A stretch of 64,000 nucleotides of DNA from Azolla caroliniana. Its lineage: Eukaryota; Plantae; Polypodiophyta. A program made the translations under genes and the position numbers. Of this stretch, positions 3,602-39,019 are shown piece after piece (position 1 is the first letter of the stretch; the number at the start of each line of letters is the position of its first letter). Below the pieces are notes generated by a model, which was not told the DNA's origin, made no database searches, and saw nothing but the letters and a program-made list of their open reading frames with translations. The stretch covers positions 13,764,001-13,828,000 of the forward strand of contig JBHGNT010000018.1 in NCBI GenBank assembly GCA_043228905.1, given 5' to 3'.

Positions 3602-4037
3602 TGTCATGATATGGCAAGACTCGAACCCATGACCTTATGCTACATGGGTCGAGCTTTTGACCATTAGACTATACATTGTAATACATAGAATATTATTTTC
3701 ATTTATGTTTTATTATAGAAAATTGATGTATATTCCAGATTTCTCTGGAACATTCTAGAAACTTCAGGAGTATTCCTTAGAACACTATAAAAGGAGGTAC
3801 AAGGCATTATTTCGAACCAAATCGGTTCAACGCCAGTCTTAAGCCTCCTAGCTACTGTACATTTTCTTCACATAATATATATCTTTTCTTATCATCACTC
3901 TCTCTCTCTCTCTCTCTCGATCTCTCTCTCCCTCCCTCTCACTCACTCTTTCCTTCTCTCGAGAGTTCTTCACCTCTCCTAGTACTAATACTTCTTTTAG
4001 TACTAATTCCTTCTCTGTCTTAGTACTGTTCCTGACA
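3602..4037 (+). repeat. 3' LTR of the Tcn1-like element
   Basis: TGTCA...TGACA inverted termini directly after pol; TATAAAA at ~3786; CT-rich R/U5 region. Confidence 0.8.
3606..3678 (-). other. Degenerate tRNA-like (Pol III A/B box) cassette in LTR U3
   Basis: Minus strand: A box TAGTCTAATGG (3671-3661) and B box GGTTCGAGTC (3627-3618) at tRNA-like spacing; the stems pair poorly. Confidence 0.6.
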
Positions 4038-7000
4038 ATGACTTTTGCTGACCGAACGAGAAGGTTCGAGTCAAGCAAAGCTTCGATTGAAGTTATCGAT
4101 TGTAGAGCAATGATCCGGTCGAGGGATTTCCGACCGTTGAGACAACCGATGGAGTTCCGGTCGAAAAGAGTTGCCATGGCGAGTGGGTTCACTGTGCAAT
4201 GCACTGTCCCACAAGCGTGCCATGTGTTACCCGTAAGAATATATGGGGAGGCATAAGGGTATGTGTAATGATGTGGTATGTGTATGTGTAAAGTAAATGA
4301 GTGTGTGAGGATGAGTATGTGTATGGACACATGCACAATTATGTGCATGTGTACAAGAATGTGTAACGGTCTTATTTATAACAGTCATGTAACCGTTACA
4401 TTGGATGTATTATGTAAACCCCCTATGGGGTATGTAATGAAATATACATTTTTCCCCTCTCATTTTGTGTCATTTCCTATTTTTCCTTCTCTCTAGCTTT
4501 CTCTTTATCGTAACCCCCTTGGAAGGGGGGTGAAGCCATTCTAGGCCACCCCCCACCCCATTAACAATGGGCCATTAGAACCTGCTATTAATAGTTTTTG
4601 AATGACGTAGACTTGTCACAGTTCAAATATAGTAATAATAACTCTTTAATAACCACCACTCGTAATGAATACTAAATGATTTGTTGGCTTGTCCATTTAT
4701 AGTCTGAAAAGGATAGTGCCAAGAAGTAATAATAACAAGAATATTTTTCTGTTATACTTTTGCCAAGATTTGATTTGTTTTTTTATTTTTTATTTGTTTT
4801 CTATTTACACTTTTGTCCTTTTGTCAACTCACTGAGTAGTCGTCAGACTATCGGGTTCGACTCCGAGTCCGAATGGATTATCCGGTGTAGGACCTTGATA
4901 CGGTTTCAATTGGAATCCATTCACCCATTTAGGTATGATCTCCCTAGCTAATTTGACGACTTGGTATGTACCATTCTTACTGTCGACAATCCAAAAAGGA
5001 CCGGTCCATCAAAATTAGAGTTTACCCGACAGAACCCATCTTTGTTTGGAATACTAAGACTGGCTTACCGACTTCGAACAGGTTTATCTTTTTTTGTCGA
5101 TGTCGGTCGCGCCTTTGTTCGTCTTTGCTTTTGTTCTAGATTACACATGGCTTGGATCTGACTTTCTTCTAGCAATATCAATTGTTCCTTCCGAACCCGT
5201 TCTGACTGCTCTTCATCAAGTCCTTTGGTAATTTGCACACGCAATGTCAGAACTTGAAATTTTACAGGCATTACCGCTTCCAAGCCAAATTTCATTCGAA
5301 ACGGGGTCGATTTCATCATTGTCTTGTACGTAGTATGGTATGCCCATAAGGCATTATGTAACTTCTGATCCCAGTCGGTTCTATTCTCCTTAACTATTTT
5401 TCTCAAAATCATTTGTAATGTCTTGTTAGTTGATTTGGCCAACCCATTCGCTTGAGGATAATACAAAGTACTCTTTTTATGTACAACTACATAGTAATTT
5501 GATAATTCATGTACAATTCTATTTATAAAATGAGTACCTTGAGCACTTACTAGTTCGATTGGGCACCCGAATCAACACCATATGTTTTCATAGAGAAACT
5601 TTGTTGTTGATGATGCTATATTATCTGGAAGTGCTTTGGCTTCGACCCATTTCATACAGTAGTCGATGGCAATGATTATGTACCGATTGTTGGTTCTTGC
5701 AGTTGTCGGCTTGAATGGTCTAACAAAGTCGACACCCCATTTCTAAAACAGCTCCAATCGTAATATCGTTGGTGCGGCATCCTATCTCTTTCGGTTGGTT
5801 GTCCGGTCTGCTAGCATAAATCGCATTATCGACGGTAGTCAACTGCATCTTTTGTTGTAGTTGGCCACAATAGACCACTATTCCAAATTTTTCTGGCAGT
5901 CGTTTCCCCAACATAGTGTCCTCCGACAATACCGCAATGGGCCTAACACAAAACTGCTTCCTTTTCAAATTGTTGAACTGCGCACCGCCATATGTTGTCT
6001 GCTCCCTTATGGTATAATGTATCGTTTAACAGACAGAAATTCTTACTCCAAACTACTAGCCTCTTTCGTTGATCCAATGTCATTCCTTTTGGTGATAATC
6101 CAGTACTACAAAAGATTTTCATTTCTATAATCCATAAATCTGCCTTTTCTTCATCCATTTCTGTGGACATCATTGTGTCGACTCGGAAGAGTTGAGAGTC
6201 GGGAAAATCATCTTTTACTCTTGTACCCGACTCTCCCGACCCTAGTCGACTCAGATAGTTGGCCATTGCCTGCTACACCCTTGGTCGGTGAATTATGTTG
6301 AATTCAAATTCCTACAACAACAATGTCCATCTGGCTAATTTTCTAGTTAATTCCTATTTCAACACCAAGTATAATAATGTCGAATGGTCAAAATGGAATG
6401 TGAATTTCTGACCCAACAAGTAATGTTGAATTTATTAACATTGTATATCATGCCGAGAGCCTCGCGTTCAGTTGTCAAATAATTTCGTTTGGTCGTTGCA
6501 TTGTTGTTAAAAAACGCGTACTTTATAGATAGAGTACATTTTAGAATACCCACGCGTATTCTAAACGTATTCAACCTTTTGGAACTGACATTTTTTCTAA
6601 GCCTAAATTTGTAAATAATTTAAAAATTAATTTTCTAGGGTGTTTTTTAGTAGAGAAAAAGAAAATAATTATGTAAATATTTAGACACCATTTATCCATG
6701 GGCAATAAAGATAATTGGTATTTACTATATAGTATTCAAATTCCAAGTATCTTTGCATTCAACATCTATGGTGTTGAAGTATTCAATGTATTCAACGTAT
6801 TCAACATATTCAAAACGTACTCAAGGTATTCAACGTATTCAAAACGTATTCAACGTATTTTACCTTTAAATACGTATTCTAAGAACTTATAAATTTTTTT
6901 AGAATACTTATAAAATACGTAGCATACTTATTGTACCCGTACGGTATGCTATGTATGTTACAACCATGGGTCATTGATAACTTCCGACTCGTGTAGTACA

Positions 7001-10000: not shown

Positions 10001-10900
10001 AACTCAGCGATTTTTTATTTTTCTTCAGCTGCAACTGACAGTCGTTGTGCCACATGGTTCACGTCCCATGTCGTCAGAAAATTGAGCACATGCGCTTCCG
10101 CATCAGCTCGATCCCAATACTTTGAGTAAGGGTAAGGCATATTGTCTTCTTCCCAAATGTCGTAAAAAGAACTATGTTTGGACTACTCCTCGTCCAAATG
10201 ACTATCAATTAAATCGGGAATTGCACTCCACTCTCCCTCAACTTCTTGCTGAGTCTGATTGATAGGTACCGAATCGTCAGCACTCCCACCTACTACACGT
10301 TGAGTCTCTGATCATGTGCATGGTTTTTTTCGGCCTATAGGTGTATCTAGAGTAGATGACATCCATTCCCCTTGAGTAATCGGGTCAAGGAATCGTGGTC
10401 GTGTAGGAGATTAAGGTAGGGCCGAGTAGGGCTGAACCGTTAACGATAACCAGCTACAACCGATTTGCACCCCACATCTTATAGGTTAAATAATAGAATC
10501 GAGAATAGGATTTAGATGAGATAGATGCAGAGATGACCCAAATAGTATATGTATTAACTACGAAATAGAAAAGATTACAAGAGGTAATACAGACCTATGA
10601 TAAATCGGTAACTCTCTCTCTCTTAGTACAAGTCTTCTAATCTAGATTTTATCACTCTGACTCGTAACAGGATATTTTCTATCTCTCTTTCTTTCTGCTT
10701 CTTAACGATTTATATAGCCTACGCGTTTCGGCTACTTCCTCCTGATTCTTGGTCTTTTTTCATGGTTGTTTGTCTTTCGGTTTACCTTCCTCGGCTGCTA
10801 GTGCTCGGCTTGTTTCTCCTTTTCATACTTGACCTACTCGTCCATTTTCACACTTTACTTTTAAGATTCTTTTCAACCCTCATGCCTTTTGTCCCACAAT
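4038..10900 (-). mobile_element. Heavily decayed non-chromoviral Ty3/Gypsy element (Athila/Selgy-like); boundaries approximate
   Basis: Minus-strand fragments in order: gag (~8850-10200, with an R/D-rich region), protease (~8250-8500), RT (7419-8279, internally deleted), RNase H (FHVFVDAS, 7011-7235; NYLTTERE, ~6480) and integrase (YYPQANG...ALWAY, 5065-5968). A PPT-like G-tract lies at 4549-4559. Confidence 0.8.
6499..6968. mobile_element. hAT-family MITE inserted in the Gypsy RNase H
   Basis: TIRs CATTGTTGT / CATGGTTGT; 8-bp TSD GGTCGTTG (6491-6498) / GGTCATTG (6969-6976); many internal ACGTATTC repeats. Confidence 0.8.
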
Positions 10901-11024
10901 AACAATCTGTAAAGTGTGTCATCTTTCATGATGCTTTATGCCCCTTAGAGTGGTATTCTCCACACATATGTTTCATGTTGGTTCCATGATGATTGGGACA
11001 TGTGGGATGAGCTTGAGCTTGAGC

Positions 11025-11096
11025 TTGAGCATCATCCAATGGAAGGGCACTAGATTTGCAAAATCTAAAGACTTGGATTTGAACCTTGCCACTTGC
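11025..11096 (+). other. Degenerate tRNA-derived sequence (Cys-GCA-like; possible SINE head or pseudo-tRNA)
   Basis: D-loop-like TCCAATGGAAGGG, perfect anticodon hairpin TAGAT-TTGCAAA-ATCTA, then a degenerate T loop GGATTTGAACC at canonical spacing. Confidence 0.4.
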
Positions 11097-11599
11097 AAAA
11101 CTTTAGCATAAAATTTTTCATATTCATTGAATTCCTTTCTTCAACATGAATCACATTTTAAAAAAACATACTTTTGCTAAAAATTAGAGTGGAAATTTGG
11201 CCTAGAGGATAGCAAAGCAATAAATCTATGTTGCTAGCTCCAACTTGCACCAAGCAGAAAATAAAATCAAGGGCGATTTCTTTGGGCTCACACAAAAAAG
11301 TGTGATTCAGTAGGTTCAATGAGGACAAGAACGTGTTACTCTCATGGAGAGCCTTATTGAGCACTTTTTTGTGTGTTGAGCCATATCGAATCATGAGTGC
11401 TTGTCTTTCAATCATAGACTGAAGATAGGCGAAATGTTCATTGAGTGGTGAGTGGTTTGCTTAATTTACATTCCTAGGTGATCTTGTAGCCAAGGATCTC
11501 TCGAGGTTATCATTTGACTTTCCTTATTATGCATAAAGGTAATGCTTTTAAGATTGTGTTTAGTTCAAAATGACTTGCTTGTATTTTTCAAAGATAGAG

Positions 11600-13062: not shown

Positions 13063-16000
13063 TGGATAGGTTAAATATTATATCATGGAAGGTTTGAGGT
13101 CTAGGAGGTAGAAATTGTCATAAAGTAAGGAGTGTTTTCCGTCATCAATTGAGGAAGTCTTTGGTAGCTAGGATTGATGTTCATTTTATTCAAGAGCACC
13201 ATTTAAATGAACAAAGGATTCGGAAATATGGAAATCTGTTGTCATGTCAATGGAGGCAGCTTTGGGTGCCTACAGTTGGCTGGACTCTATATAGCAATAA
13301 ATGATACATGTTTGTTCTCATTCTTACATTATGGAATCTTGTCATGTGGTCGAGGTCAATATGCAATTTTTTGAATAGGTTTGAAGAAGTGGGGTTTCTT
13401 GAATATTTATGATCTGAATAATGCAAGAGAGAGAACGATATTTTGGAAGAGCATAATTTCACAATTACCCACTGTGGATCATTGGGCGATTGTAGGTGAT
13501 TTTAATATGTTAGAGGATGTGTGTGATAGGATAGGAGGAAGGTCACATACAATAGTTGGTTTAGAATTATATGAATGGGAGTGACTGATTTTTTCTTTGG
13601 GATTAATGGATTTGTGGCATGTGTCTTCCTTTGTAAGGCTACAAGATTCTTTATCGTACTCCAGATCAGATAGAAGAGAGTTACATACCAATTTGTCTAG
13701 GCTAGATAGATTCTATATTGATAAGTTTCTATGGGACAAAGGAGGCTCCATTGGAATTTTACCTTCATTTTCCTTTTCTGATCATGCACCACTTCGTTTA
13801 ATTATAGTTTTATAGGAACACTATAAAACTTCTATATTTCGAATTCCGAATCATGTGTTTCTTTACAAGATTGTGTTCTTGTTGTACATAATATTTGGAA
13901 TAAGTATGTCTATTCTTATGATTATGCATTATCTAGTGTTCAAAAGGCTATTACTGAAATACAACAATTTTTTCACTATAAAGCCAAACAAATATTTCAA
14001 GCATCTTTCACTAAAATAGGAAGACTTCGTAGGCGATTGAGGTCCTTGTAGCATTTGCAAGAGAGAAGGCCATATTCGACTTATATAAGTTCTAGAGTGA
14101 TACACGTAGGGAATAAGATATTAGAATTACAAAAGGTTTCTGCTGAATTTACTTACCACAATATAGCATCTAAATGGGCAGAGTCAGGAGATAAAGTAAA
14201 TAAAATGTTTTTTAAAATGCATAATCACCATAAGTTGGCTACTAGGATTTCCTGTTTAAAATGTCCTGGTGGCTGTTATACCAATGATCCTAGTTAGATG
14301 CGGCAAATAGCCTCTGAATATTATAATAATTTGTTGAAGGCTCAATCCTTTTCTGCTGATGATTTATCCAAAGAGATATTATATGGTCGAGGATTCAACA
14401 TAGAGTGTCTGTTAAACTTTCCGAATGTCTTTTGCAACCACTAAGTCCTCAAGAGGTTTTTAAAGCAGCAAAGGCCTTAGCAAAGGATGTTTGTCCTGGA
14501 TTGGATGGGTTGGGGGTCCAATGGTATATAAAATATTGGGATTTGATAGGTGAGGGACTGACTAAAGCTTATCAACAGGTTTTAGATTCTGGAAATATGC
14601 CGCAAGAATGGAATGACGGTTTAATCTACATGATTCCCAAATCAAGTGGTCAGTTAGAGGAACTTCGGCATTGGAGGCCAATTACTTTGTTGAACATTAT
14701 TTATAAGATATTAGCCAAAACCTTAGCTAGATGTTTACAACCTTATCTTTCTGAACTGATTCATGATTCTCAGACAGGTTTTATATAAGAGCGAAGTATT
14801 TTTTATAATATTATTCTTTTTTGGGAAATGGTAGCTTTTGCTGAAGTGCAGAATCAAGAGTTGGCAGTGCTATTTTTGGATTTCGAAAAAGCTTATGACA
14901 GAGTGGATTGGGATTTCATGGAGGGTATTTTACTCAAGATGGGTTTTCCAAACAGATGGATACGGGGTGTTTCAACATTATATCGTAATGCACATAATTT
15001 TTCTTTTATTTGCAAGGGATGTTGGTAGGCGTTTCTCTATTTCAAGATCAATCAAACAAGGATGTCCACTTGCTCCTTTTCTGTTTTTATTAGTATCTGA
15101 AGTGTTTTCTATACACTTAAATTCTTAGCATGTTAATATCAAAGGTTAAGCATTTCCATTTGCAGATGTTGGCGTCGATTGTGAGTTTGTCGATGTTATA
15201 GCTCTTTATGTTCAAGCCTCACAATTTAACTTGTTGTAGGTACTTCTCAGATGCATCGGGTGCATTGATCAATTGGGATAAATCATCAGGTTTTTGGGTG
15301 GCTTCGGGAGATCCGCCATTTAATGTACCTAGCGTAGGTTTCACGTGGATTCCTAAAGGGCAATCCATTACGTATTTAGGATGTAGAGTAGGGATAGGAT
15401 TAAAGGTAGAAGATATGATTGCGCCCTTGTTGTTAAGATTAAGGAATAAGCTAATATATTGGAATAAGGAAAAGTTATCCCTAGCAGGACGTGTAGTTGT
15501 TGCTAATTTTGTGCTTTTGTCCTCCATTTGGTATATAGCGTCTACGTGGTTGTTTTCTAGGTCAATAATGCTTAAAGTTCAATGGCTAGTGCAGAATTTT
15601 ATTTGGGGGAATGCTACTATACACAATACTATAGCAAAGGTAGCTTGGTCAGTTCTTATACAACCCAAACAAAAAGGAGGTTTAGGTTTGATTGATCCTT
15701 TTATGCAAAGTAAAGCATTACTTGTTAAACATGTTGTTAGGTGTTTATTGCCAGGAGAGGAGTTATGGAAAAAGTTTTTGGATGTGTCATTTATATAAAT
15801 TTAAACCATCGATTGGTGGTCAATGGTGTGTTAGTCTTAGATGGTTCTTTAAGTCGGACTTTCCATTGCCTAAGTCAACAGTTGGGTCTTTACGTTTTTG
15901 TAATGGAATTCTAAGGGCATGGGAAAGTATTCGTCGAGCCCTTGTTTTCGTGCCACCAAAAACATATCATCAATTAATGCGTCAACCGTTGTCGTAGTGT

Positions 16001-18162
16001 ATTTCGTACACTACATGAAAAACTTATAAAGTACCGATTTAATAAATATGAATAAATAGTAGAAAATATTAAAATATATATAACATGCATAGGGCAAGAT
16101 TCGACCCTTGCACCTCCATGTTAATAATGTAATGTCTTACCATTACACTAGCATTTCATTAGTGTTCAAAAATAGATGTTCCACATAGAAAGCTTAGTTC
16201 ACCTAGGATAAACTTTAGTTAAAAGAAAACGCATGCTAAAAGAAAAAGCTACGCATGCACATCTAGCGTGCATGAACGCTATAGTTGATAAAAAACACAC
16301 AAGTTAGAAAAAGCATGATCACTTTAGATAAAGCATATAGTCTATCTATAGGAAAAGCATGGAGTCTATAGTTAGAAAAAAAAAAAGCATGGACTCCCTC
16401 ATCACTACATAAGGATGGGGAGCACAATGTAATAGGTGTGTGAAATATTTGGAAATTGGATATATTTCCGAAAACACCAACCGATTAATATAATCGTGGG
16501 ATTCACGAAAATAATACAATCTATACTTGTGGGATTCACAAGTTTCTTATATCTTTCTTTCAATCTAAATACATATTCTTATCTAAATATTGATTAATCA
16601 AATACAATACACTCGTGGGATTCACGAAATTTCTATCTCTCTTTCTAATAATCTATTCATTACTAGCCTCATCTCATATTCTTCTTTCTCCTAGTCCAAA
16701 ACCTCAGTGGTTCCCACCCGACTCACGCAACGATCCGGCGCCGAAAGGCACGACACCGTTGTTATGGAATCCTTTATTTACTGATGAAGCGGCATGTGTT
16801 TTGGGTTTACGACCTAGGTTATCTTGACCTACAATGGATAATGGACCAACTCGTACGGTTGCGGATTGGGTAAATTTCCTGCAAACTTCAATGCAAGACC
16901 AAAAGACTAGGATGTCTAATTTCAGAGGGGCAAACATTATGCTCTCTCAAGTGTCAACAGTGTACCAAGTAACACTGCCAACTTTGCGATTTGGTCATTT
17001 TCAGAATTGGTATGGTATGTTTTCAACATTGAATATACTTATAGGAGCTCTTTGTATACTCAAAATGGCAGCCTCTACTTTTATGAAGTTTTGGATAATG
17101 GTAAGTTGTTTTTAGTGGAGGAGGAGTCTTCAATTATGTCTTCTACCAAGCAGTTGCCCGTGAGAGTAATTGCTAGATTAGATAAAAAGATATTTATAGA
17201 TCCTTATCCATTAATTGCTAAGTATTCATCTCAAATGTGGGTTTTACACTCTAGGCAAATTGCTGATCTGGAGTGGGATCCATCATATTATGGTTGGAAG
17301 TTGCCCATGTCTGACACTATGCAAACGAAAGTTCTTCTATTTTTCGCATATTCTATGGTGTTGGGTAGAAATGTTTTGTTAAATGAGATAGACTAGATAC
17401 CTACGGGGAAAAAATATTGGGAGGAAGGTAATGTGTCATCTTCATATATGTTGAAGTTCTGGAAACAATTTTGGTCACTTAAATGTATGAACAAGGTATT
17501 GCATTTTCGATGGTTAATGATTCATTATGCATTGCTAGTAGGAGCTTTATTGAGGGGAACAGTACCTAATCGATCATGTGGTAGGTGTGGTTTTGCATCT
17601 GAGACATTGCATCATGCTTTTTGGGAATGTGTTACGGCCAAATGTTTTTGGTCTCGTATTCTTAGGCTATTAGGTCGTAAGAATAGGGCGGCTAAATTCC
17701 CGTGGGGTACAATCTTTTGGGGTACGTTGGCTCAACAAACGGTTTTTTATCATCATCATAATTCATCATTGACTTTATATGTGAAAAGTTTTCAGGTGTA
17801 CATTACATCAAGCTCCTTGCAGGGAGTCAAGTTTTTTTCCAAGTGTTATGTTTGGAACATTATTTCCTCTTTGGCCTTATGGATTATTTGGAAAGCAAGG
17901 TGTTCTAAAATATATAATGATGAACAAACTAATGTTGTGGATCAAGTTAAATTATTCTAGGAATTATTGGTAAATACGGTTAAAGGTGAATATGATAGTT
18001 ATAAGGGGTTTGAAAATGGACCTAACCGGAAAAGTAGGAGAATTAAAAGGGTCAGTTATTCCTATTTTCTTGGATGCAGTAGGTGAAGATGTTAAGTGGA
18101 ACTATGTTCCACCTCTTTGGTTATTTCCGCCACCATCATCCTTTATATTGAATACAACATGA
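13059..18162 (+). pseudogene. L1 ORF2 (APE endonuclease, reverse transcriptase, zf-RVT)
   Basis: IISWKV*GLG, FIQEHH, GDFN, SRLDRFY, SDHAP, PGLDG, WRPITLLN, DFEKAYD, QGCPLAP, KVAW, CGRC...H...C; many stops and frameshifts. Confidence 0.88.
15990..16755 (+). mobile_element. Solo LTR (Gypsy family related to the 26295-34142 element)
   Basis: TGTCG...CGACA termini; 4-bp TSD CCGT on both sides; reverse complement of the 38140-39019 family; minus-strand tRNA-like cassette at ~16086-16157. Confidence 0.88.
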
Positions 18163-18451
18163 CTAAATAGGAAGTCCACATTAATTTGTCATTAGTACAG
18201 TAGTTGCATTAAGTTTGTTTGTAGATACAACACTTTAGTGGTACATAGTGAGATGGTGATGATTTCTATTTGGTAAGGATGAAGGATGGTGTTGTCGGGG
18301 GTTGAAGCAAATTTTGAGGGGATGCAGACAATACATTCACTCTATTTTGGTTTGTATAGGTTTTAGGTAGTGAACAAACAAATGGTTGAGGTGGAAAATG
18401 AAGCACATTGTTGATGGGGAAAATGAAGCACATTCAATTTTTGTAGAGGAT

Positions 18452-26294: not shown

Positions 26295-27321
26295 TGTCGT
26301 GAAGATCCGTCACTACGCGCGGATCGTGAGGCGGAACCGCCGGGGTTCTGGACCAGAAGGATTTAGAGTCGATACAAGCTTTGGCGAGAAAGTACTTAAG
26401 ATAGATTGGGAAAGAGAGAAGTTGAGATTACGCGATTGATTTGAAAACGAATTTCTTCCTCTTAATTTTCATAAAAAAAAACCATATTTTTCTCCTCCCC
26501 CTTCCCTCTTTTATAGATGCTCTCATGCATATGATGCATGTGAGGGTACAAGACATGCATAAATTGCATGTTTGCCATTTGGCGCTTAAGTATTACATGT
26601 GGTGCATGCTAACCATGTCACTCATTTTAGCACTCATGGATGAGAATTTACATGTAAAAGTACAATGATAGAAATATAATTTCAACTAAATACCATGGCT
26701 TAATGATAAGCCATTTGACTCCTAACTTGGAGGTGCAAGGTTTGAATCCATACTTGCCCTCCTTGTATATGTAAATATGTATATATTTTTATATATTTAT
26801 TTTATCTAGTCGCCGGTTCGCCGGATACCGTCGCCGGATGCCGATGCCGCCGTCGGATGCCGACGCCGTCGCCGGATACCGGTGCCGCATGCCGCCGCCG
26901 GATTGCCGTCGGATGCCGTCGGATCACCGGCTCCATCGCCGGTCCGGTTTTGGTTGGCCAAAACCCTTTTCGAGTAGCTAGCCACCTCCACTCTAAGTTC
27001 AAGTTACCTTGAACTCTCTATGCTCCACACATAGACACAAAGATAATATCTTTTGCTCCACCTTATATATGATGAGAGCCGTATTTGTCGTGCCTATGTG
27101 GGATATCTCACAATTTTCTCTTTTCTTTTCACAAACTTTATACCCTCATATCTTGACATTTAGTTGTCCATTTCTCGTGTAATAAAGTGCATTCGAAACC
27201 TCCATCATTTTGTACTTAGATATTAAAAATGTTATCTTCACAATTATTGTATTACGTGATTCATACTCGATTTTGTACGTTTTATGGGATTTTCACACTA
27301 TTGCCGAAAATCTTCACGACA
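26295..27321 (-). repeat. 3' LTR of the Ylt1-like element
   Basis: TGTCG...CGACA termini; PPT (GGTGGGGGTGGA on minus) at 27322-27333; contains a tRNA-like cassette at ~26689-26760 (+) and GC-rich repeats at 26811-26947. Confidence 0.93.
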
Positions 27322-27393
27322 TCCACCCCCACCAAACCGCACGTCCTCCGGTACGTGCCAAGAATAGAAGAAGTGAGATTTCGGCTATGATGA

Positions 27394-30300
27394 TCAATTA
27401 GATTCCTCCATGTCTTCATTTTCATCCGGCCTATTATGTTCATCGTCGAGGTAATCGAGGTCAGGATCCTTGTCTTGTCTTTTCTTGAAAAGCTTTACTC
27501 TTTTTCCCGCAATGGGTACGGCCAACCTTGATCCGTCTAGTTCCGCAAGGTGGTATGTGGCATTATCGTTGGCACTTGTCACCACATACGGCCCGAACCA
27601 TCTTCTTGCGAACTTCCTTGTTGTACTATGTTGATTGTCAAGGGTGCTGTCGTAAACCAAAACCCAATCCCCATCTTCAATCTTCTTGGGACGAAGTCGA
27701 TGCGTGTTGTTGAACCAAACTTTGTTCTTTACTCGGGCTGCCTTCATCATCTTTCGCGCATTTTCTAAATCTTCAGGTCTTCTTTCAAGTTTCCTTATCC
27801 ACGCCGCTAATAACTCTTCTGGGTTCATCTCGTTCTCCCACGGTATCGCTACCCATGAGGCGATCGTCCTTTCGATGGGCATAATCGGCTTTTGTCCATA
27901 CATAAGCTCTGTCGGCATATACCCTGTCACCGAGCTATGTGTCGTTCTATCGGCCCACAAGGCATAGGGTAATAGTCGTGGCCAATTCCCGACTCGAACG
28001 TTGCATGCCCGTACGATGGCTTTAACGATAGGTCCATGCCCTCGCTCGATCTTCCCATTTGCTTCCGGATTGTAGGCAGTCGTGAGGGAGAGCTTCACGC
28101 CTAGTCTTTCGAAGAGCTCCGTCACTTCGTGCACGTCCAACTCCCTTCGGTCGGCCACTATCTTCCCTACACATCCATATCGGCAAACAACATCTTCAAG
28201 TAAAAATTTACAAATGGCTGAAGTCGTCTTATTTGTCAAGGCTCGTCCTTCCACTTGATTTGTCAAGTCTTCCCTTGCGAGCGCTAAGTACTTCATTTGT
28301 CCCACTCCCATTGGCATCGAGACCAGATCCACCATCCATTTGAAGTGAATGGTGAGTGGGTATGTCGGCTTTAACTCATCACGATGACGTATATTTGAAT
28401 ATATTTGGCAAGTTTCACATGTGTAAACGAAATGGAGTACATCTTTGTACATGCTTGGCCACCAGTACTTCTCCTTCAATTTTTCGAACGTCGCCCATGT
28501 TCCTCTATGACCTGCCCAAGCACTCTCGTGGAATTCGGTCATCAGCGTCTCTTGCTCTTCTTTCTTTACCACCACTCGACGTGGTATTCCTGTTCTTCTT
28601 TTTGGATGTCGCCAAAGGAATCCTCCCTTCAAGAAGTATCGATAAGCTTTCTTCCGGATTCGTAGGGCCTCCTCCTTTGTCAACGAAGCATCGGTCGTCA
28701 ATGTTCTTAGGAATCTACCGATGAGTAACCACTCTCCTTCGTACTCGTTCTCGTTGAAGGCGTGGAGGGTTTGCGTGTCCTGGTCTTCCGCCGACAATCG
28801 AGCCATCTTGAAGAAGTCGAGGGCGACATCTTCATCTTCCGAAACCATGTTACTTCCATTTGAAAATCTTGCCCTCGACAGCATGTCAGCCATGGCGTTC
28901 TTCTTCCCTATGATGTGACGGATCTCTGGGTTTAAAGACTTGATGTAGGCGATCCACCTTAGCATAGCAAGATCTGGGGTCGCACATCCCGAGACCATTC
29001 CGAGAATTGGGAGACAATCTGTCTCTATTATCACTTCTGACCCGATCAAGTAATCTTTGTCCGTCTTCACTGCCGACACAATACCCCAAAGTTCCCGCTT
29101 GACTTGGGCATATCTTTGTTGCCGTTCATTGAGAACCTTTGCTCCGAACCGGACGGCATATCGCGCATTATCTTCACCTTCTTGATTGATGACCCACCCA
29201 ATTCCGGTTGGGCTCGTATCTACGGTCACGTAAATTGGTTTCCCTTCGGCATAGTCGGCCTTCCTTAGTGCCGGAGCTTCAAGAAGCAATTTCTTTAATC
29301 TTCGCATCGCCTCTGTGTGCTCGTCTCGCCATTCGAACTTTATTCTTTTCTTTAGTAGTCCATATAACGGTTCGACGACATGAGCGTAGTGAGGAATCCA
29401 TATATGATAAAACGTGCACGCTCCAAGGAACCTTCGAACCTCCGTTTGGTTTTTGCATTCTTCTTTCATGTCTTGGATTGCGTTCACTTTGGATGGCGAG
29501 GGCTTCCGGCCGTATGCTCCACACAAGTGACCTACCACCAAGATCTCCGGTTGCCCGAATGCGGATTTTTCTCCCGAAAATGTCAAATTCGCATCTTCGA
29601 GCCTTTGAAGCACCTTCTCGCAATCTTTCATATGATCCGCAACGAACTTTCTACAACCTTCCTTATCTTTCGATTCATCTTTCTCCTCATCCGAACATCC
29701 TTTTATCGGAATATCATCCAAGAATGGCATCGTGATGTCCGGAATGCAATCCTTCAAGACTTTATTCATGGCATTCACCATATGAGCCACCGAGTTCGTT
29801 GCGCCTTGGGGTAAGGTACACATCCGCACAAGCCCGATCGGAGTCCTCATGGTTGTAATGTCCCGACTGTCGATCGCCAACTAGAATTGGTCATATCCGG
29901 AGTAGAGATCGCCAATGGAGTAGATGGACCGGCCCGCAAACGCTTCGGCAAATTCGTCCACGCTCGGACCGATTCCGGCATTTCGAATTGTCACCTTGTT
30001 GACGGGTTGAAGATCTTGGATGAATCGCAATGATGCATTCTTCTTCGGCACCGTGAACCACCTATTGGAATAAGGAGCATTCGACGGTTCTAGAATTCCC
30101 ATACTCACCTTCTCCTTTAAGAGCTCGATCAGCTTCGGAAGGTGTGCTCTCGGAACCGGTATCGGTTTCAAATTCCAAGGCACATGAGGCACCGTGAAGA
30201 TCACCATTGGCTCTATAACCTTTGGGTCGGCACATCCGATTTCTCGTGGGAAGAATGCGAAAGCCTTCCCATGTCTCTCAAGCATATCGCGAAACATTCG

Positions 30301-30888
30301 CTCCTCTTCAGGGAGAAGGAAATCCTCCTTTCCAACTCGTAGCTTCCCCTTCGTCTCTTTGGTGAAGTCATGACCTATCTTCTTCGGATCTCTTAAGCTT
30401 GGATCGTTAGCGACTTCCTTCATCTTTTGCCAGCTATCTTCCGGTAGCGGAACCGCAACTGGCTTGATCTTCTTATCCACTGTTTTATATTTCGTGTTGA
30501 TGTCAGCTTCATTCATCGAGATGCCACGACGGTATTCATCGATGATAGCATACATGTTGACGGAGTTAACCGAAATCACACGTTGGTTGTGAAGATAGCT
30601 CAAGTCCACAACGTCCTCGATTTCGCCGATGGTGTCGTTAAATGAGGCTTCTTCCATAATATGAGTCACGAACTCCCCTTCTTCTATTATGTTCTCTTCT
30701 TTCAGCATCTTCTCGAATTCTTGTATCCGGCTCTTGTGCTTCTTGTCAGGTAGTACTAGTTTACATGCGCCACTAGGTGTGACACATGTTGCTTCTCCTT
30801 GCAATCCACGTGCTCTTCTTTCTTGTGGGGTCTTGTGATTGCTCGGACTATTTGTGCCCCATGCTTCAATAGTCCGCTCTAAAAATCC
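27394..30888 (-). pseudogene. Gypsy Pol (RT, RNase H, integrase) with one premature TAG at 29883-29881
   Basis: DLYSGYDQ, LPQGATNS, FLDD, VDTSPTG, H-x6-H...CETC, EANGKIERGH, WFGPY; no chromodomain. ORFs 29881-30804 and 27394-29880 are in frame. Confidence 0.93.
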
Positions 30889-33083
30889 GCGGATTCGCCT
30901 CCGAGACTATCTCGATTCCTTTCATGATTGGCTCGCACCGTTAGGAATTGGACCGATCTTTGGTTGTCAAGACTCTTTATTCGTGCGAAGGCTGCTCCAT
31001 TATCGAACACTTTGGTCTCCATCCGAGATGATGTGATATAAGGTTGCCCTAGGATGACAGGATGCGATGCCGATTCTTGTACGAAGAAGTGTTGATCCAT
31101 CTCCACATCCCCGATCGTGACTTTGACATTGGGACAAGCTCCGTACAAGTCCTCCGTAGACTTTGTTGCCGCGCGAATCTTCCATCCGTGGTTTGTATTA
31201 ATTGGCCATCTTCCCTTTTTGTAGAAGTCGGTTGACATGAGGTTGATCTCCGAGCCGTGGTCGATCAAGGCTACAACGGTCTCTTTCTTCTCCCCGATCT
31301 TCACCGGCGTCTCCGTTGTCGCTCATGCCCAATGAGGTCGAGTGTAGTGGTTGTCCACCATATCTTCATCGATTTCGTCTCTTGCCATCGTTATGGCATT
31401 CGTTTTTGCTTTCTGCGGCTTCTCTTCTTCATCGTCCGATTGTTGTCTCTTTCTCTTTACAAGGTCCACGATCGTGTCATGGAACTCCTTCTTCGTAATG
31501 CCAAGCAATTCCCTCAAGGACAAAGTTACATGCCTATCAAGAACTCGTTCTTCGAGAATCTTCTTTAGGTCCGTCGTCTGCTCTATGTCCGACCTTAGCT
31601 TATAGGTAGGTATGGTCCTTGTCCTCCGAGCGGGGTCTTCGACACCAACCTTCACGGGCCGAACCGTTTCTTCAACTCATATGCTCGGCTCCCCTTTTCG
31701 GCTTGATTCTCGTTCCTCCGTTTGTAAAGGTCGACTCGTCTCCACATCGTCCTTCTTTTTCGCGTTCCTTGTTTCATGTCTTTTTGATGGGCCTTGCTCT
31801 TCTATTCTCTTTCTCTTTTCTTCGACGAACACCTCGTGGTTGTCGCACATCACCTCTGCGAGTATGGTGTTGTCGTCCACCGGATCCGACCACCCGGTTA
31901 TGCATTGCACGTTTCGGTCCGCAAGCTCTACCTCGTTCGATGTGACTTTTCCCTTCTTCTCATATTCGAGAACGGAAGTCCAAAACTTTGCTCCCGCTCT
32001 AGCAGCTTCAGTCTTGTCTTTCCCGACTCTTATTCCGGCCGACGCAGCATAGTGCATCACATCCACATGAGTCGCATCGGCATCCTCCATAGATTTCTTC
32101 ATTCCTCCTCTTCCGAAATTCACCCGTAGGGGTCTTCTAGTCTCGCTTGAGCAGATCATGTTGTCCTCTATGTATACGATATTTTGTCGAATCGCCTCTC
32201 GAAGGCTCGCACAATCCCTTCTCATGTGGTCCATGCTATCGCACCACACGCATCTAAAGGGTTCTTTTCCTTTAGGGCCCCGACGATTTATGTTGGCTAG
32301 CGTGACCTTCTCGAACTTCTTCGCTAGCTCTTCGATGATGTCGTCATCAATCTTCTTTTCTTCCACGTTACTTTGTCTCAGCGGCTCAGCTACTTTCGGC
32401 GGTCTTGCTTTCTCCGTGGTAGTCGGTCCCGTCAAGTCGGTGTCATCAACCCATTGGCGACGCTTGTCGAACCTATTGCATGCCCGCTTCACCGCGATCC
32501 AGTCCGCTACGAGCCCATTTGCTTGGGTATCATCTTCGAGAAGAGTCCCCAACTCCCGTCTATCCTTTATGTCCATGGCCTTCAAGAAGTACAAAGTCTT
32601 GTCCTCTTCAAGCAACACTTGGTCCGTATTGGGGAGACGACTAAACATCTGGTCGAATTCGTCGTACACCCTCGAGACGCTCATCTTCTTATTCTTCTTC
32701 TCTATCCACTTCATCAGGGCATGTCGAGTCATCCTCGTTGAGTCATCAGTCACGAACTCCGCTAGTATCGTTTTCTCGAACTCAGACCATGTTGTCTTTC
32801 CTTCTTGAAGCTCGATGACACGTCTTTGGATGTTGTTGGCGACAACTCTCTTGAAGCTTGCGATTTGACGTGCCTCGGACACATCCCTTTAATTCATCTC
32901 CCTCTTATATGCATCAAGGAACTTCGTAACATTCCTTCCATCGAATTGGCCCTCGAGCTCTACGACACGATCGACAGCCTTCTCCACGCTCACGTCGTTG
33001 TCCCGAGATCTCATCATTTGCTCGACGATTAGCATCATCCTTTCGAGCTCTCCCGCTTGGTTGCTTGAGGATGCCATCTCCAA
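30879..33083 (-). pseudogene. Gypsy Gag-protease ORF (CCHC knuckle, DUF4100-like region, aspartic protease) with 3 premature stops
   Basis: ORFs 32889-33083, 31677-32882, 31323-31655 and 30879-31304 share one frame; CVWCDSMDHMRRDC; LIDHGSEINL...ILGQPY. Confidence 0.9.
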
Positions 33084-33118
33084 GTATCAATCTCAACTTG
33101 ATCCTTCCTACCGCCTCG

Positions 33119-33136
33119 TTCACATCGGGTTCACCA
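33119..33136 (-). other. Primer binding site complementary to the tRNA-Trp 3' end
   Basis: Minus strand TGGTGAACCCGATGTGAA matches the plant tRNA-Trp 3' end as I recall it (TTCACGTCGGGTTCACCA) with one G:U-compatible difference; 8 nt from the LTR. Confidence 0.7.
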
Positions 33137-33144
33137 CTTAATTA

Positions 33145-34142
33145 TGTCGTGAAGATCCGTCACTACGCGCGGATCGTGAGGCGGAACCGCCGGGGTTCTG
33201 GACCAGAAGGATTTAGAGTCGATACAAGCTTTGGCGAGAAAGTACTTAAGATAGATTGGGAAAGAGAGAAGTTGAGATTACACGATTGATTTGAAAACGA
33301 ATTTCTTCCTCTTAATTTTCATAAAAAAAAACCATATTTTTCTCCTCCCCCTTCCCTCTTTTATAGATGCTCTCATGCATATGATGCATGTGAGGGTACA
33401 AGACATGCATAAATTGCATGTTTGCCATTTGGCGCTTAAGTATTACATGTGGTGCATGCTAACCATGTCACTCATTTTAGCACTCATGGATGAGAATTTA
33501 CATGTAAAAGTACAATGATAGAAATATAATTTCAACTAAATACCATGGCTTAATGATAAGCCATTTGACTCCTAACTTGGAGGTGCAAGGTTTGAATCCA
33601 TACTTGCCCTCCTTGTATATGTAAATATGTATATATTTTTATATATTTATTTTATCTAGTCGCCGGTTCGCCGGATACCGTCGCCGGATACCGATGCCGC
33701 CGCCGGATACCGGTGCCGCATGCCGCCGTCGGATTGCCGTCGGATCACCGGCTCCATCGCCGGTCCGGTTTTGGTTGGCCAAAACCCTTTTCGAGTAGCT
33801 AGCCACCTCCACTCTAAGTTCAAGTTACCTTGAACTCTCTATGCTCCACACATAGACACAAAGATAATATCTTTTGCTCCACATTATATATGATGAGAGC
33901 CGTATTTGTCGTGCCTATGTGGGATATCTCACAATTTTCTCTTTTCTTTTCACAAACTTTATACCCTCATATCTTGACATTTAGTTGTCCATTTCTCATG
34001 TAATAAAGTGCATTCGAAACCTCCATCATTTTGTACTTAGATATTAAAAATGTTATCTTCACAATTATTGTATTACGTGATTCATACTCGATTTTATACG
34101 TTTTATGGGATTTTCACACTATTGCCGAAAATCTTCACAACA
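33145..34142 (-). repeat. 5' LTR of the Ylt1-like element
   Basis: Direct repeat of 26295-27321, differing by a handful of substitutions plus indels in the GC-rich repeat. Confidence 0.93.
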
Positions 34143-37100
34143 ACGGGATCAAGTAGGAAGGCACCGAAGTGATGCCGACAGCAATTCCAAACCCTCCGAA
34201 AATAGGGGGAGTCGAGGTGACGAGAACCGGCAAAGGAAATCCGTCGCGGAATGTTGGTACTGTGGCAAGAAAGGCCACAAGGAGAGCGAGTGTTGGAAGA
34301 AGCGCGCCGATTCGGAGAAAACCAGATCTAGATCTGGACAAACTGGCAAAGGAAATCGGCAGCAATCACACTACGGCGAAGGATCCAAAACATTCGGAAA
34401 CGGGGCAACCTTCATGAAGAGACACAAAGCAAACTCGATGAAGAAGACCACCCCGAAATCGGACGAGGTGTGGTACGTTGACTCCGGCGTGTCAAACCAC
34501 ATGACGAGCCATAAGGAGTGGTTCTCATACCTTGAGAAACCGATGCAACCGGGAGTAGTCGCAAAAGGAGACGACACTCCGCATCCGATCGAGGATGTCG
34601 GTGAAGTTCCCCTGAGCCATGTCGGGCAAAAAGGGAAACTCATGAACATGTTACACGTCCCGACAATCACGAAGAATCTGGTGTCGGTCGGGCAGATCGT
34701 CGACCAGGGGATGCAAGTCTGGTTCACACATCTCGGGTGCTTCATCGAGGAGGAAGGCCAAGTTATTGCGCAAGGGCGCAGAGACGGGAGGATGTTTATC
34801 CTCGACATCAATGACATTGGCACCGTAATGTTCGCAAAAGGACAAAAAGTCGAGTCAGATATCGACTTGTGGCACAAGCGGATAGACTATGTCAACTATC
34901 AAAGGTTTCAGGACTTGCAATCGAAACAAGTTGTGTTCGGATTGCCCAAATTCAATGGCCGGCCCAAACTTGTGAAGCCTGCCAGCTAGGGAAGCAACAC
35001 CGACTTCCTTTCCCCAACGAGCGTAACCGGAGCCGGAACAAGCTCAACTTAATACATTCAGATGTATGGGGCCGGCACAGAATGTTAGTCTTGGTGGTAG
35101 TTGATATTTTTTCTCCTTCATCGACGACTACACGCGGCACACGTGGATCTATCTCATTGAAAAGAAGAATGAAGTCTTGGATTGTTTCTGGGACCTCAAA
35201 AGCTTCGTAGAAAGGGAAATAGGGAGAAAGATCATGTGTCTACAGTCGGATGGAGGAAAAGAGTACTTTTCCGGCCAATTCAACAGTTATCTTCAACAAA
35301 TGGGAATTCGGCGCGAATTCAGTTGCAAGAATACACCAGACCAAAACGGTGTAGCCGAAAGGACAAACCGATCGTTTGTGGAAGCGGCACGGGCAATGCT
35401 GGAAGAAAAGAGCTTGCCCACGTTCTATTGGGCCAAAGCGGTACGAACCGCGTTCTACATCCATAATCATATCAGAGACAAGGTGTCCGTGCATGAGCTA
35501 TATTTCGAAAGGAAGCCGAATCTACGACACTTGAGATTTTTCCATAGCATTGCGTATGTGCATGTGCCGAAGGAGAAACAGAGGAAGTTGGACACGAAAG
35601 CCGAGAAGTGTATCTTGGTCGGCTATTCGGACGAACAGAAGGGTTATAAGTGTTATAACCCCCGAATCAAACAAGCTCGCGTGAGCCACGATGTTGTGTT
35701 TGACGAGTCCGCGTCCTGGTACTTTCCTCCGACTCCGGACCTCAACTCCAACTCCGGACCTCCGGACCCGAGTTCTGACGATGAGGTCAGCGAGGCTGAA
35801 ATGACTCCGAATGACCGCAAAATCAAGACCCTCGATGAGAGTCTGATTTCATTTCGGCTAAGTGGACCGAACGAGCAACTAGGTCGGTTTGACTAATCCG
35901 AAGAAGAGCCGGCGAGTAGTGGAGACTTTGTCGTGCATTCCCCCCGCAGGAAGCCGAGGAGACGGTTTACGCACAAGGAAAAAGGGAAGAAGAAGATGTC
36001 GTATAAGGGCGAGTCGGATCAATGTGAATCCGACTCCGAGAAGAGCGATGACGGGCCTTCGAGAGCAAAGTCCGCGTCGGCCAAGCAAGGCTCAACATCG
36101 GCTAATGAGCAATTACGCCGATATACCCGCCAGAAGAACCCTATTGTGCGGTTCGGATACAACGAGTACATAGCGCATCACTATGTGTACATGACGCGTG
36201 TAGCGGAAGTGCGTGAGCCAGAGAGCTACGCAGAAGCGGCAAAGGACGCAAATTGGCGTGCCACAATGGAGGAAGAGATGCGTGCATTGGTAGAGAATGA
36301 AACCTGGAACCTAGTTGACGCTCAGAAGGGTGTGAAGCCGAACGGATGTAGGTGGGTGTACAAGGTCAAGTACAACACCGACGGCTCGGTCAAGCGATAC
36401 AAGGCCCGGTTAGTAGCGAAAGGCTATGCGCAGCAACACGGCATCGACTACAATGAGACGTTTGCACCAGTCGCAAAGATGATGACCGTCCATGTTTTGC
36501 TTGCGGTAGCTACAGTGAAGGGATGGCATTTACATCAGATGGATGTCAAGAATGTGTTCCTGCAAGGCGAGCTTGAGGAACAGGTGTACATGGTACAGCC
36601 CCCCGAATTTCACTCCAGAATGAACACCTCGGTGGTGTGCCGATTGAAGAAGTCCCTTTACAAACTAAAGCAAGCCCCGCGTGCTTGGAACGCAAAAATC
36701 ACACAATGATTGCGTCGGATGGGATTTGCGACATCCAAATCAGACTCTTCACTGTTCATTCAGAAAGTTCAACTCGGGCCTATTAGTATTTTACTTTATG
36801 TTGATGACTTGGTCATCACCGGCACCGACCTAGGTGAAATTGACCGCGTAAAGCTCCAGCTCACGGCATCATTTGACATGAAGGACCTTGGGGACCTTCA
36901 TTACTTCCTAGGGATCGAAGTGATCCGTACCCCCGAAGGCATATTGATCAGCCAATAGCCTTACATGTTGTCTATGCTCTTCAAGTTTGGAATGGCAGAT
37001 TGTAAGTCTGTCTTGACTCCTCTAGATAGAATCATCAAGCTTCACCCCGACTCCGGAAAGGTTTGCGACCCGAAGAGGTTTGGAAAAATTGTCAGAAGCC

Positions 37101-38139
37101 TCATATACTTGACTATCACTCGAACAGACATTAGTTACCCGGTCGGTGTGATTAGTCAATTCATGGCGCAGCCAACCAAGGAGCACCTTCAGTGCGCACA
37201 ACGCGTACTCCGGTACGTCAGTGGCACTAAGGATCGGGGGCTACTATATCAGACCGATACTGACGTGCAAATAGTCGGCTACACCGATGTTGATTGGGCC
37301 GGAAACGTCGACGATTGCCGATCCACATCTGGATTCACGTTCTCTCTTGGGATCACTGCGATCGCGTGGAGTAGCAAGAAGCAGCCGACATTTGCACTTT
37401 CGAGCACCGAAGCCAAGTATAGAGGAGTGGTTGTCGCCACATGCGAAGCCATCTGGCTGAAACGACTACTTAAGGATCTACAGCTGGAGGTGTCCAATCC
37501 GATGACGATCTACTGCGACAACCTCAGCAGCATCTAGTTAGCGAAGAAACTTGTCTTCCACGCCCGGACTAAGCACATTAAGGTGCACTACCACTTTGTC
37601 CACAAGCGTGTCCTCTCCGGTGAAGTCGAACTTCAGTATGTTCCGATGGATCGGCAGACTGCCGACATTTTCACCAAGCCCCTTGGTCTCGACAAGTTGC
37701 AGCAATTCTCGGGTGCACTTGGGTTGCGACACCTCAATGTGCCGAACTTGAGGGGGAGAGAAGTCCCGGAAGACCAAGGAAGGGAGCAGGAAAGGAGCGG
37801 AAGAGACCGTGACGCCAAGTCGAATGACGAATTCGATTTCGGGTCGGCTGAAGAAGCCCAGGGTGGATCCGCGAAAGAGTCTGAATGTGGACGTGAGGGA
37901 AGAGGCAGAAAGAAAGAGTCGAAACCAGCCAAGCATGGGGGAGATGAAGCCAACTTAGACGAGAGCCAAAACCGATCGGAGGAAGCTGATTCAATTCGGA
38001 TGTTTGATTCGGAGACGCCAAATCAACCGAGGGCTAAGCGGAACAAAGGGCAGCCGAAGAGGCGCCAACACCGCGACAGCAAGGGAGCTGAGAAGGGCCT
38101 CATGAGCACACACGCCAACCGGAAGGGTCGAGGCACTTG

Positions 38140-39019
38140 TGTCGTGCCTTACAGCTCTGGATCGTTGCGTGAGTCGGGTGGGAACCGTTGGGGTTTTGGA
38201 CTAGGAGGAAAGAAAATTCTAAGGCGGTTAAGAATATGAAATATATTGTAAGAAAGAAAGATATGAAAAATTCGTGAATCCCACGAGTATAGTGTATTAG
38301 TGAGTACTCAAATTAAGAGAGAAAAAATAGTTAGCAAACTCGTGGATCCCACGATTATATTATATTAATCAACCCTTGTAAAATAATCAACAACCCCTAT
38401 ACATCTTTCTCTCTTCCTTATATAGTGTTGGAAGAGTCTAAGTTTATCACATGCAAGCATCATGCTTTCCCTATCTTTAGTTTTCATGCACACTGCATGT
38501 GCATGATTAGCTTTCTATCTCATCTTTTCTTTTAACTCGAGTGTCTATGCATGAATAACTTTTTGTACCATGCATGTCTAGAAATTTAACATGGGATAAA
38601 GTTTAGTATAACTTTAAAATTCATAATACGCTAGTATAATGATAAGGCTTAACATTATTAACATGGAGGTGCAAGGTTCGAATCTTGCCCTATGCATGTA
38701 ATATATATATTATTATACTTTCTCCTATTTACAAATATGTCTCTTCATCTGATGAGAGACTCTCACCGGCCTTCTTCATCCGGCTCTTTCCGGTTCTACT
38801 TCATCCGGTGCTTGCTAGTTTTCTTTGTCCGGTTCTTACCGGGACCTCCTTACCGATCTCTTCGTCCGTTTCTCACCGACTCTCACCGACCTTCTTCATC
38901 CGGCTCTTGCCAAGTCTCCTTACCGATTCCTTCTTCCGGTTCTCACCGGGTACTCCATGTCCTATCCGGAGAGACCAAAAATGTAATTTTTCACGTAGTG
39001 TGCGAATTACACTACGACA
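38140..39019 (-). mobile_element. Solo LTR of the same family as 15990-16755, inserted in the 3' region of Copia B
   Basis: TGTCG...CGACA termini; both ends and the tRNA-like cassette (38625-38696, +) match the reverse complement of 15990-16755; TSD imperfect. Confidence 0.85.

Follow-up and report, generated by a model that had tools for sequence, protein, structure and literature searches.

Antisense cassettes with tRNA-like promoter boxes in the U3 region of Tcn1- and Phygy-type Gypsy retrotransposons of Azolla caroliniana

In a 64,000-nt stretch of the Azolla caroliniana genome (contig JBHGNT010000018.1, positions 13,764,001 to 13,828,000 of the forward strand; "the window"), five long terminal repeats (LTRs) of Gypsy retrotransposons carry a cassette resembling the internal promoter of a tRNA gene. 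All five cassettes lie in the unique 3′ region (U3), antisense to their element and upstream of its TATA box. The window, which belongs to a genome of 523 Mb, contains pieces of Gypsy, Copia and LINE (long interspersed nuclear element) sequences nested within one another. Judged from genome-wide comparisons, the module is real and appears to be under selection, and its presence in the U3 of chromoviral as well as non-chromoviral Gypsy lineages, as proposed in the initial annotation, was borne out. The position, orientation and copy number of the cassette, the conservation of its promoter positions across families and the loss of its RNA structure are described below.

The five A and B box pairs were all found where they had been annotated (Table 1). 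A box, B box and spacing match those of host tRNA genes, which is the type 2 promoter pattern of RNA polymerase III (Pol III). The distance between T8 and position 52 was 43–44 nt, as in class I tRNA genes, in agreement with the tRNA-like spacing originally claimed. The claimed antisense orientation and location upstream of the TATA box also held for all five, the distance from A box to TATA box being 114 bp for the Tcn1-type cassette, ~255 bp (to a degenerate TATA box) for S16, 207 bp for S38 and 180 bp for both family Y cassettes. In the Tcn1 cassette the motif AGGT occupies tRNA positions 44–47, and the LTR ends 16 nt beyond the B box. A damaged B box was found in three of the five cassettes (C56T twice, T54G once). 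The T54G of the S16 cassette is absent from its relatives L140, L141 and L145, and the A-box G19A of the S38 cassette is common to most of its close relatives. Several details annotated for family Y were partly upheld: the loop CTCCTAA is present at tRNA positions 32–38; GGCTT/AAGCC forms a hairpin, which is one base out of register compared to host tRNA-Arg and hence not a true D stem; and the T5 run at 26786–26790 exists without being a feature of the family.

For scoring, a matrix was built from 57 host tRNA sequences representing 20 isotypes, without Ala, Glu, Val, Tyr and Arg(CCT). The cassettes in the window scored 18–28 bits, compared to 15–33 bits for the host tRNAs and a 99th percentile of 10.4 bits for shuffled U3 sequence. 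Four Copia LTRs, examined on both strands, reached at most 9.6 bits. A score of at least 18 arises 0–2 times per shuffled 64-kb stretch (10 shuffles), and since single copies thus score only modestly against shuffled sequence, the claim rests on the genome-wide data. The exact A+B pattern was found 2,419 times in the genome, whereas the pattern read backwards gave a single match. The first 30 matches were fetched, and 28 of these match LTR sequence outside the masked cassette; the remaining two belong to a separate short interspersed nuclear element (SINE). A plain SINE insertion, which the initial annotation had described as a few copies flanked by their own target-site duplication, was rejected: the matches are mostly in LTRs, no SINE body follows the cassette, and the flanking direct repeats measure 0–7 nt.

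Searches with a tRNA finder and with covariance models, of the kind suggested with the initial annotation, did not support a tRNA. ARAGORN, applied to the window and to three LTR stretches in isolation, reported no tRNA, and the same sequences gave no tRNA match in Rfam, where a host tRNA used as control scored 67.5 bits. A cloverleaf is not formed, with 0–6 of 7 acceptor pairs and 0–4 of 5 anticodon pairs. Outside LTRs, a distinct SINE-like repeat was observed (L188:5732–6049 and L189:5807–6157); it is derived from a tRNA, measures ~320 bp and has both boxes intact. As a direct donor of the cassettes it was rejected (z ≤3.3).

The carrier elements code for reverse transcriptase (RT), RNase H and integrase and span 5.2–7 kb from LTR to LTR. 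The element ending at 3602–4037 has a chromodomain after the integrase (PF00385 at 3439–3600, E 2e-10); 7 of 430 sites differ between its two LTRs, the 5′ one of which lies immediately outside the left edge of the window. A tRNA primer site was looked for in this element and none was found. In its 3′ LTR, a 13-nt segment is the complement of the sequence that follows the 5′ LTR; this segment begins 33 nt after the TATA start and has two changes in the 5′ LTR copy; self-priming has been predicted for Tcn1 (PMC6317226). The family Y element (26295–34142) is flanked by a 4-bp target-site duplication, and its LTRs differ at 7 of 997 sites. Both this element and the S16 solo LTR show a duplication of the form NCGN, by which Phygy is defined in a supplementary table row of PMC6317226. 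Of the two LTRs annotated as solo, S16 agrees with this description, whereas S38 is not a clean solo LTR: it has no target-site duplication and is followed by the first bases of a primer site, with full-length relatives elsewhere (L121–L124).

Family Y and the full-length S38 relatives have the tRNA-Trp primer site in common, and their pol segments are 62–79% identical. Between their LTRs, hardly anything but the cassette can be aligned (~70% over 93–102 nt). Tcn1 and Phygy pol are 24% identical. The three Gypsy families of the initial annotation therefore reduce to two lineages, because S16, S38 and Y share the tRNA-Trp primer site, similar pol and homologous cassettes. Judged from their features, the carrier of the LTR at 3602–4037 fits Tcn1, and the families Y, S16 and S38 fit Phygy (NCGN duplication, Trp primer); the label "Ylt1-like" was that of the initial annotation. 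Both clades have been reported from mosses and club-mosses (PMC6317226; PMC2864245).

The conservation of the cassette was examined in samples anchored outside it. For Phygy, a primer-site pattern (845 matches including duplicates) was used, and 30 loci yielded 24 distinct LTRs. The cassette was present in 15 of these, 11 with at most one mismatch per box, one with a 3-nt insertion and three degenerate. The other LTRs comprise three deleted through the cassette, four seemingly cut short by other insertions and two of a cassette-free family. In a further Trp-primed family (L191:4373–5923 and L192:4308–5858), three cassettes surround the TATA box, and the 5′ side of every one faces it. Two of them are antisense in U3, and one is sense and located downstream of the TATA box in the repeat region (R), where a transcript like that proposed for the Helenus elements discussed below could be the product. 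Outside the boxes these cassettes are mutually unrelated (z ≤1.7), which documents repeated capture directly. The convergent acquisition proposed in the initial annotation is thus shown, though within Phygy only. Between Tcn1 and Phygy, some cassettes resemble each other outside the boxes with z up to ~5, compared to up to 4.4 for cassette–tRNA pairs. This similarity leaves room for a shared source, or the module may have been transferred between the two lineages.

For Tcn1, a pattern of purine tract and LTR start was found at 2,199 sites, and the first 30 of these made up the sample. In 25 of the 30 LTR starts, the first 60 nt contain an antisense B box that scores 10 bits or more, compared to at most 2 of 30 for the other 39 combinations of bin and strand. 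The 30 LTRs fall into nine U3 clusters with identities of 0.49–0.66 (shuffled: 0.52), and the integrases, where present, are 51–94% identical to that of the element at 3602–4037. In most of these LTRs the B box ends 6–37 nt from the LTR end, so that it is not an integrase attachment site. The B box outlives the A box in several families, and B-box-only families exist (L234, L251, L258). This matches the order described for TFIIIC, in which the B box is the high-affinity and the A box the low-affinity site (PMC11811891).

The history of the cassette in Tcn1 was followed with a metagenome scan, which returned 80 loci. Of 93 candidates, including 13 from the present genome (some picked for their cassette), 66 gave both an integrase and an LTR start. 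The cassette was found in all 12 rows from the present genome and in 8 of the 54 metagenome rows. In the integrase tree of the 66 rows, the 20 cassette rows, including eight metagenome contigs, fall into two supported clades (100/99 and 97/88), and the cassette state changes three times, compared to 17 times with shuffled labels. One row scored as lacking it (L276) has a degraded cassette on inspection, and the more distant rows are all without one. Both one gain with subsequent losses and two gains would fit this tree.

The positions that are kept were determined in a column survey of 22 family representatives. Majority fractions of 0.91–1.00 were found at T8, A14, G53, T54, T55, C56, A58 and C61, which is partly circular since these positions served as alignment anchors. 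The stretch A44-G45-G46-T47, which lies outside the scoring matrix, is kept at 0.82–0.91, and no more than 5 of 19 host isotypes have AGGT there. At position 33, which does not vary among 16 aligned host tRNAs, the cassettes have a majority fraction of 0.50, and their stems pair poorly. The first T4 after the B box was found at a distance of 1–134 nt and is absent within 300 nt in two of the 22 representatives; several Phygy families have T-runs beyond the B box, and no T4–T5 terminator is conserved across the representatives. As claimed initially, promoter positions are kept while the stems have decayed. Because box columns are retained and position 33, stems and terminator are lost, the cassette is conserved as a DNA promoter pattern and not as a folded RNA, and since neither structure nor terminator is conserved, the defined small antisense RNA envisaged in the initial annotation is disfavored. 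The check suggested there, whether the boxes are more conserved than nearby U3, comes out positive across families, where the rest of U3 is near random, and negative between sister LTRs. A published B-box consensus includes a GTC ahead of its core (PMC3159450). TFIIIC surrounds the B box together with the adjoining upstream sequence, and the change C56G reduces binding 370-fold (PMC11811891).

A single donor tRNA was not assigned, as the scorings disagree and the host isotype set is incomplete. For family Y and one L192 cassette the best match was tRNA-Arg(TCT), and another scoring placed Lys(CTT) first for family Y. Large clusters of tRNA genes, many of them degenerate (Pro, Gln, Trp and Lys by sequence), were observed at C3:9.32–9.50 Mb, C1:26.2–26.4 Mb, C8:17.80–17.82 Mb, C16:4.99–5.11 Mb and C5:17.99 Mb.

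Mutations after insertion were analyzed in sister LTRs from 58 fetched regions and the window, which yielded 36 LTR pairs, 35 of which were used (15 Y, 6 S, 14 Tcn1). Outside CpG, C-to-T changes on the tRNA-like strand were enriched about fivefold 8–40 nt upstream of the A box (12 of 91 C sites, compared to 93 of 3,820 elsewhere; p=4e-6, with 12 events only). The AT-matched odds ratio of this excess was 5.6 (12 events in 10 elements), and the two groups of families not used in setting the bin gave 8 of 46 versus 49 of 1,479 (p=2e-4). Of the 17 transitions in the bin, eight are located 10–18 nt before position +1; in active tRNA genes, a mutation peak has been described 12–15 nt upstream of the mature end (PMC6130373). 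The upstream peak suggests, but does not prove, that many copies carry Pol III start complexes. In family Y, a mutation cold spot lies 100–300 nt from the A box in the direction of the TATA box and covers the TATA box and the start of R (0.4–0.5% sister difference, compared to 2–5% in upstream U3).

Taken together, the data are best described by a captured tRNA gene that was worn down to its internal promoter and fixed in antisense orientation in the U3 of autonomous Tcn1 and Phygy elements, where it likely binds TFIIIC, likely assembles a Pol III start complex and would thereby shield the element's promoter. We consider this explanation moderately probable; TFIIIC binding, Pol III initiation (from an indirect mutational signature) and a benefit to the element are inferred. 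TFIIIC would bind the extended B box of the cassette and, in cassettes with a surviving A box, would place TFIIIB on the stretch that separates the cassette from the TATA box. The putative start complex, 100–250 bp upstream of the element's TATA box, would keep the element promoter open and shielded from adjoining heterochromatin and read-through. Selection would act on transposing copies, and inserted copies would be free to decay. In yeast, TFIIIC sites act as barriers and block read-through (PMC4228148). The moss chromovirus RLG1 carries a chromodomain and is thought to target heterochromatin, yet is expressed in unstressed plants (PMC7466625). In a wider version, put forward tentatively as possible rather than probable, the module would be a portable TFIIIC/Pol III insulator against silencing: chromodomain-guided elements would bring their own tRNA-gene (tDNA) barrier into heterochromatin, unrelated lineages would have captured it repeatedly, and thousands of Pol III start sites would rival or outnumber the tRNA genes.

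A number of observations weigh against a shielding TFIIIC/Pol III module. A complex bound in the U3 of the 3′ LTR would obstruct the path of the element's own transcript. The module appears to be dispensable: the Phygy sister family L164/L182 and both GC-rich L200 LTRs, whose neighboring pol is 73% identical to that of Y, have no cassette, and within the Tcn1 clade of the integrase tree the rows L271, L272, L282 and L284 are without it and L280 largely so. Between sister LTRs, discordance is not lower in the boxes than outside them (9 of 271 versus 11 of 838 sites in Phygy pairs; 3 of 181 versus 10 of 574 in Tcn1 pairs). The B-box CpG was changed in 23 of 57 young Y copies (19 C56T, 4 G57A; 57 of the 58 fetched copies were used), compared to 4 of 57 for a control CpG. 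Three elements, including the family Y element in the window, have C56T in both LTRs, so that damaged templates may still have been transposed. The C-to-T signal consists of 12 events, windows 95–170 nt downstream show G-to-A changes at a similar rate, and the strand difference of the flank is not significant (p=0.07). Ten of the 12 upstream events are on the 3′ LTR and not on the promoter LTR that a barrier would serve. Finally, a mutation hot spot over the cassette body disappeared when whole LTRs were compared, which left the signal in the upstream flank only.

Among 100 of the 742 family Y matches, read by eye, the B-box CpG was changed in 30 (70 CG, 17 TG, 12 CA, 1 TA). A B-box-dead sub-lineage of Y was rejected, as C56T is unlinked to other markers in the 57 copies, the changes among the 100 matches are nearly symmetric between the two strands of the CpG, and the apparent clustering among the top matches is query-biased; the three both-LTR cases aside, C56T is read as recurrent CpG decay. 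These patterns point to free decay of inserted copies and to selection on transposing copies, because the boxes persist across families despite that decay. If the cassette were a neutral relic, left by an old SINE or tRNA insertion and passively retained by the LTRs, this would account for the decay as well as for the families without a cassette, and a separate tRNA-derived SINE does exist in the genome (L188/L189). Nevertheless, we regard this explanation as the least probable of those considered, since the promoter columns, with a hypermutable CpG among them, have been kept in families whose U3 is otherwise no more alike than random sequence and whose integrases differ by half, and since neither a SINE body nor flanking direct repeats beyond 7 nt were found. 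Only slightly more credit can be given to the idea that the cassette works in the element RNA, where the complement of the tRNA D and T loops would pair with the primer tRNA, as does the 3′ half of the bipartite site in Ty3, in which a U3 segment of this kind is described (PMC5371799). By predicted duplex energy tRNA-Trp ranks second of 20 for family Y; over nine Phygy cassettes, however, its ranks are 2, 2, 6, 7, 14, 16, 18, 19 and 19, never first, in a host set without several isotypes, and an origin of the cassettes from the primer tRNA-Trp is not favored for the same reason. In addition, the cassettes keep G52, where tRNA-Trp has a T. For Tcn1, which has no tRNA primer site and possesses the 13-nt self-priming complement, primer pairing appears largely refuted.

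It is unlikely, though less so than the preceding two, that antisense Pol III transcription is itself what is selected. In this case a transcript from the 3′ LTR into the purine tract and the end of the integrase gene would tune or limit the element RNA by interference or by seeding small RNAs. The constant antisense orientation in U3, the presence in most families of both boxes, intact and at tRNA spacing, the prevalence of the upstream C-to-T events on the 3′ LTR and the T-runs after the B box in several Phygy families are in line with this. On the other hand, the variable distance or absence of the first T4, the unconserved stems and middle part, the Tcn1 families with a B box only and the sense cassette of L192 in R do not fit. 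Somewhat less probable again is a non-shielding role of TFIIIC or another factor at the DNA level, such as nuclear positioning, replication-fork handling or an RNA polymerase II (Pol II) enhancer that happens to share the B-box letters. TFIIIC sites are described with many extra-transcriptional effects (PMC4228148), and both the B-box-only families and the variable distance to the TATA box (114 to ~355 bp) would suit such a role. Yet most families keep T8, A14 and GG at 43–44 nt together with positions 44–47, which exceeds one short motif, and the mutation peak upstream of the A box speaks for a start complex.

Table 1. LTRs, cassettes and associated features in the window.
Feature	Position	Strand	Remarks
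Tcn1-type chromovirus 3′ LTR	3602..4037	+	RT, RNase H, integrase and chromodomain upstream; 5-bp target-site duplication
Tcn1 cassette	3606..3678	-	Start of U3; A box 3671-3661; B box 3627-3618
Tcn1 LTR TATA box	3785..3794	+	114 bp from A box
Predicted self-priming segment, likely R start	3818..3830	+	13 nt complementary to sequence after 5′ LTR
Phygy-type solo LTR, family S16	15990..16755	+	4-bp target-site duplication
S16 cassette	16086..16157	-	A box 16150-16140; B box 16107-16098, with T54G
Phygy-type family Y 3′ LTR	26295..27321	-	TATA 26516-26507
Family Y 3′ LTR cassette	26689..26760	+	A box 26696-26706 (G19A); B box 26739-26749 (C56T)
Family Y primer-binding site	33119..33136	-	18 nt, at most 1 mismatch to host tRNA-Trp 3′ end, 8 nt after 5′ LTR
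Phygy-type family Y 5′ LTR	33145..34142	-	TATA 33366-33357
Family Y 5′ LTR cassette	33539..33610	+	A box 33546-33556; B box 33589-33599; box changes as in 3′ LTR
Phygy-type LTR, family S38	38140..39019	-	TATA 38425-38416; without target-site duplication
S38 cassette	38625..38696	+	A box 38632-38642 (G19A); B box 38675-38684 intact

Two further A/B-like matches in the window, at 52424 (-) inside a LINE RT frame and at 4016–4072 (+) in the LTR hosting the Tcn1 insertion, deviate in spacing and are probably due to chance. Among the repeats, an exon of a NIPA-type magnesium transporter (PF05653) was detected at 44173–44574. Elsewhere in the genome, very recent, short non-autonomous derivatives of Phygy type were found with LTRs 100% identical and cassettes intact (L195:2838–6437 and L203:3660–6875). 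A tandem array at C14:16.916–16.922 Mb (L078–L084) comprises seven family Y LTR matches with a period of 939 bp. Tandem Tcn1 LTR starts with one cassette each were observed at L199:25–1032 and L238–L240. An abundant Tcn1-type LTR family (L235, L242, L243, L252, L260) shows little or no integrase match within 1.5 kb of the 3′ LTR, and its A box lies inside the loop of a short inverted repeat.

The findings bear on the question of how elements that target heterochromatin stay transcribed. To our knowledge, most known anti-silencing tricks are proteins, and a cis-acting tRNA-promoter module, if true, would solve the problem in another way. Through its exact A+B sites, which number at least 2,419 and lie mostly in LTRs, the module could also shape the availability of TFIIIC and the chromatin boundaries of the host. 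The U3 of human immunodeficiency virus 1 (HIV-1) also contains a tRNA-like stretch. The descriptions of the Tcn1 and Phygy clades (PMC6317226; PMC2864245) mention no tRNA-like U3 module in their passages on tRNA, primer-binding site, TATA and polymerase III. A literature search for antisense tRNA promoters in autonomous moss LTRs found no paper on them, most subscription journals and Repbase lying outside the search.

Among known systems, the bipartite primer site of Ty3 is similar in that a tRNA-complementary U3 sequence is part of a Gypsy RNA (PMC5371799). It differs in matching the element's own primer tRNA, which the cassettes described here do not, and Tcn1 is predicted to be self-priming. 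The tDNA barriers, extra TFIIIC (ETC) sites and chromosome-organizing clamps of yeasts are likewise B-box sites near Pol II promoters acting at the DNA level, with B-box-only forms (PMC4228148; PMC3159450); these are host loci with demonstrated occupancy, whereas the present cassettes are carried by mobile elements and their occupancy is putative. Cassandra, a terminal-repeat retrotransposon in miniature (TRIM), also has a Pol III promoter derived from a small RNA in both LTRs of a plant element. Its promoter is derived from 5S RNA and drives the element's own transcript, and the element is non-autonomous (PMC10886601).

The closest likeness is to Helenus/TRIMp3, in which the LTRs contain tRNA-derived sequence with A and B boxes kept and no functional tRNA, attributed to capture of a SINE or tRNA with several origins likely (PMC10886601). 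According to the same paper, "not a few LTRs" in Repbase resemble part of a tRNA, and the autonomous partners of Helenus are expected to use a Pol II promoter, the screen having retained elements of less than 1 kb. Helenus elements are non-autonomous, lack coding capacity and are 311–1,263 bp in length, compared to the gag-pol elements of 5–7 kb with a TATA box described here. Furthermore, the Pol III promoter of Helenus, whose orientation is unstated in the paper's text, is proposed to produce the template RNA (PMC10886601), whereas the cassettes in A. caroliniana face away from the element. The novelty is that the TRIMp3 idea is extended from short non-autonomous to autonomous elements, in the opposite orientation and presumably for another purpose.

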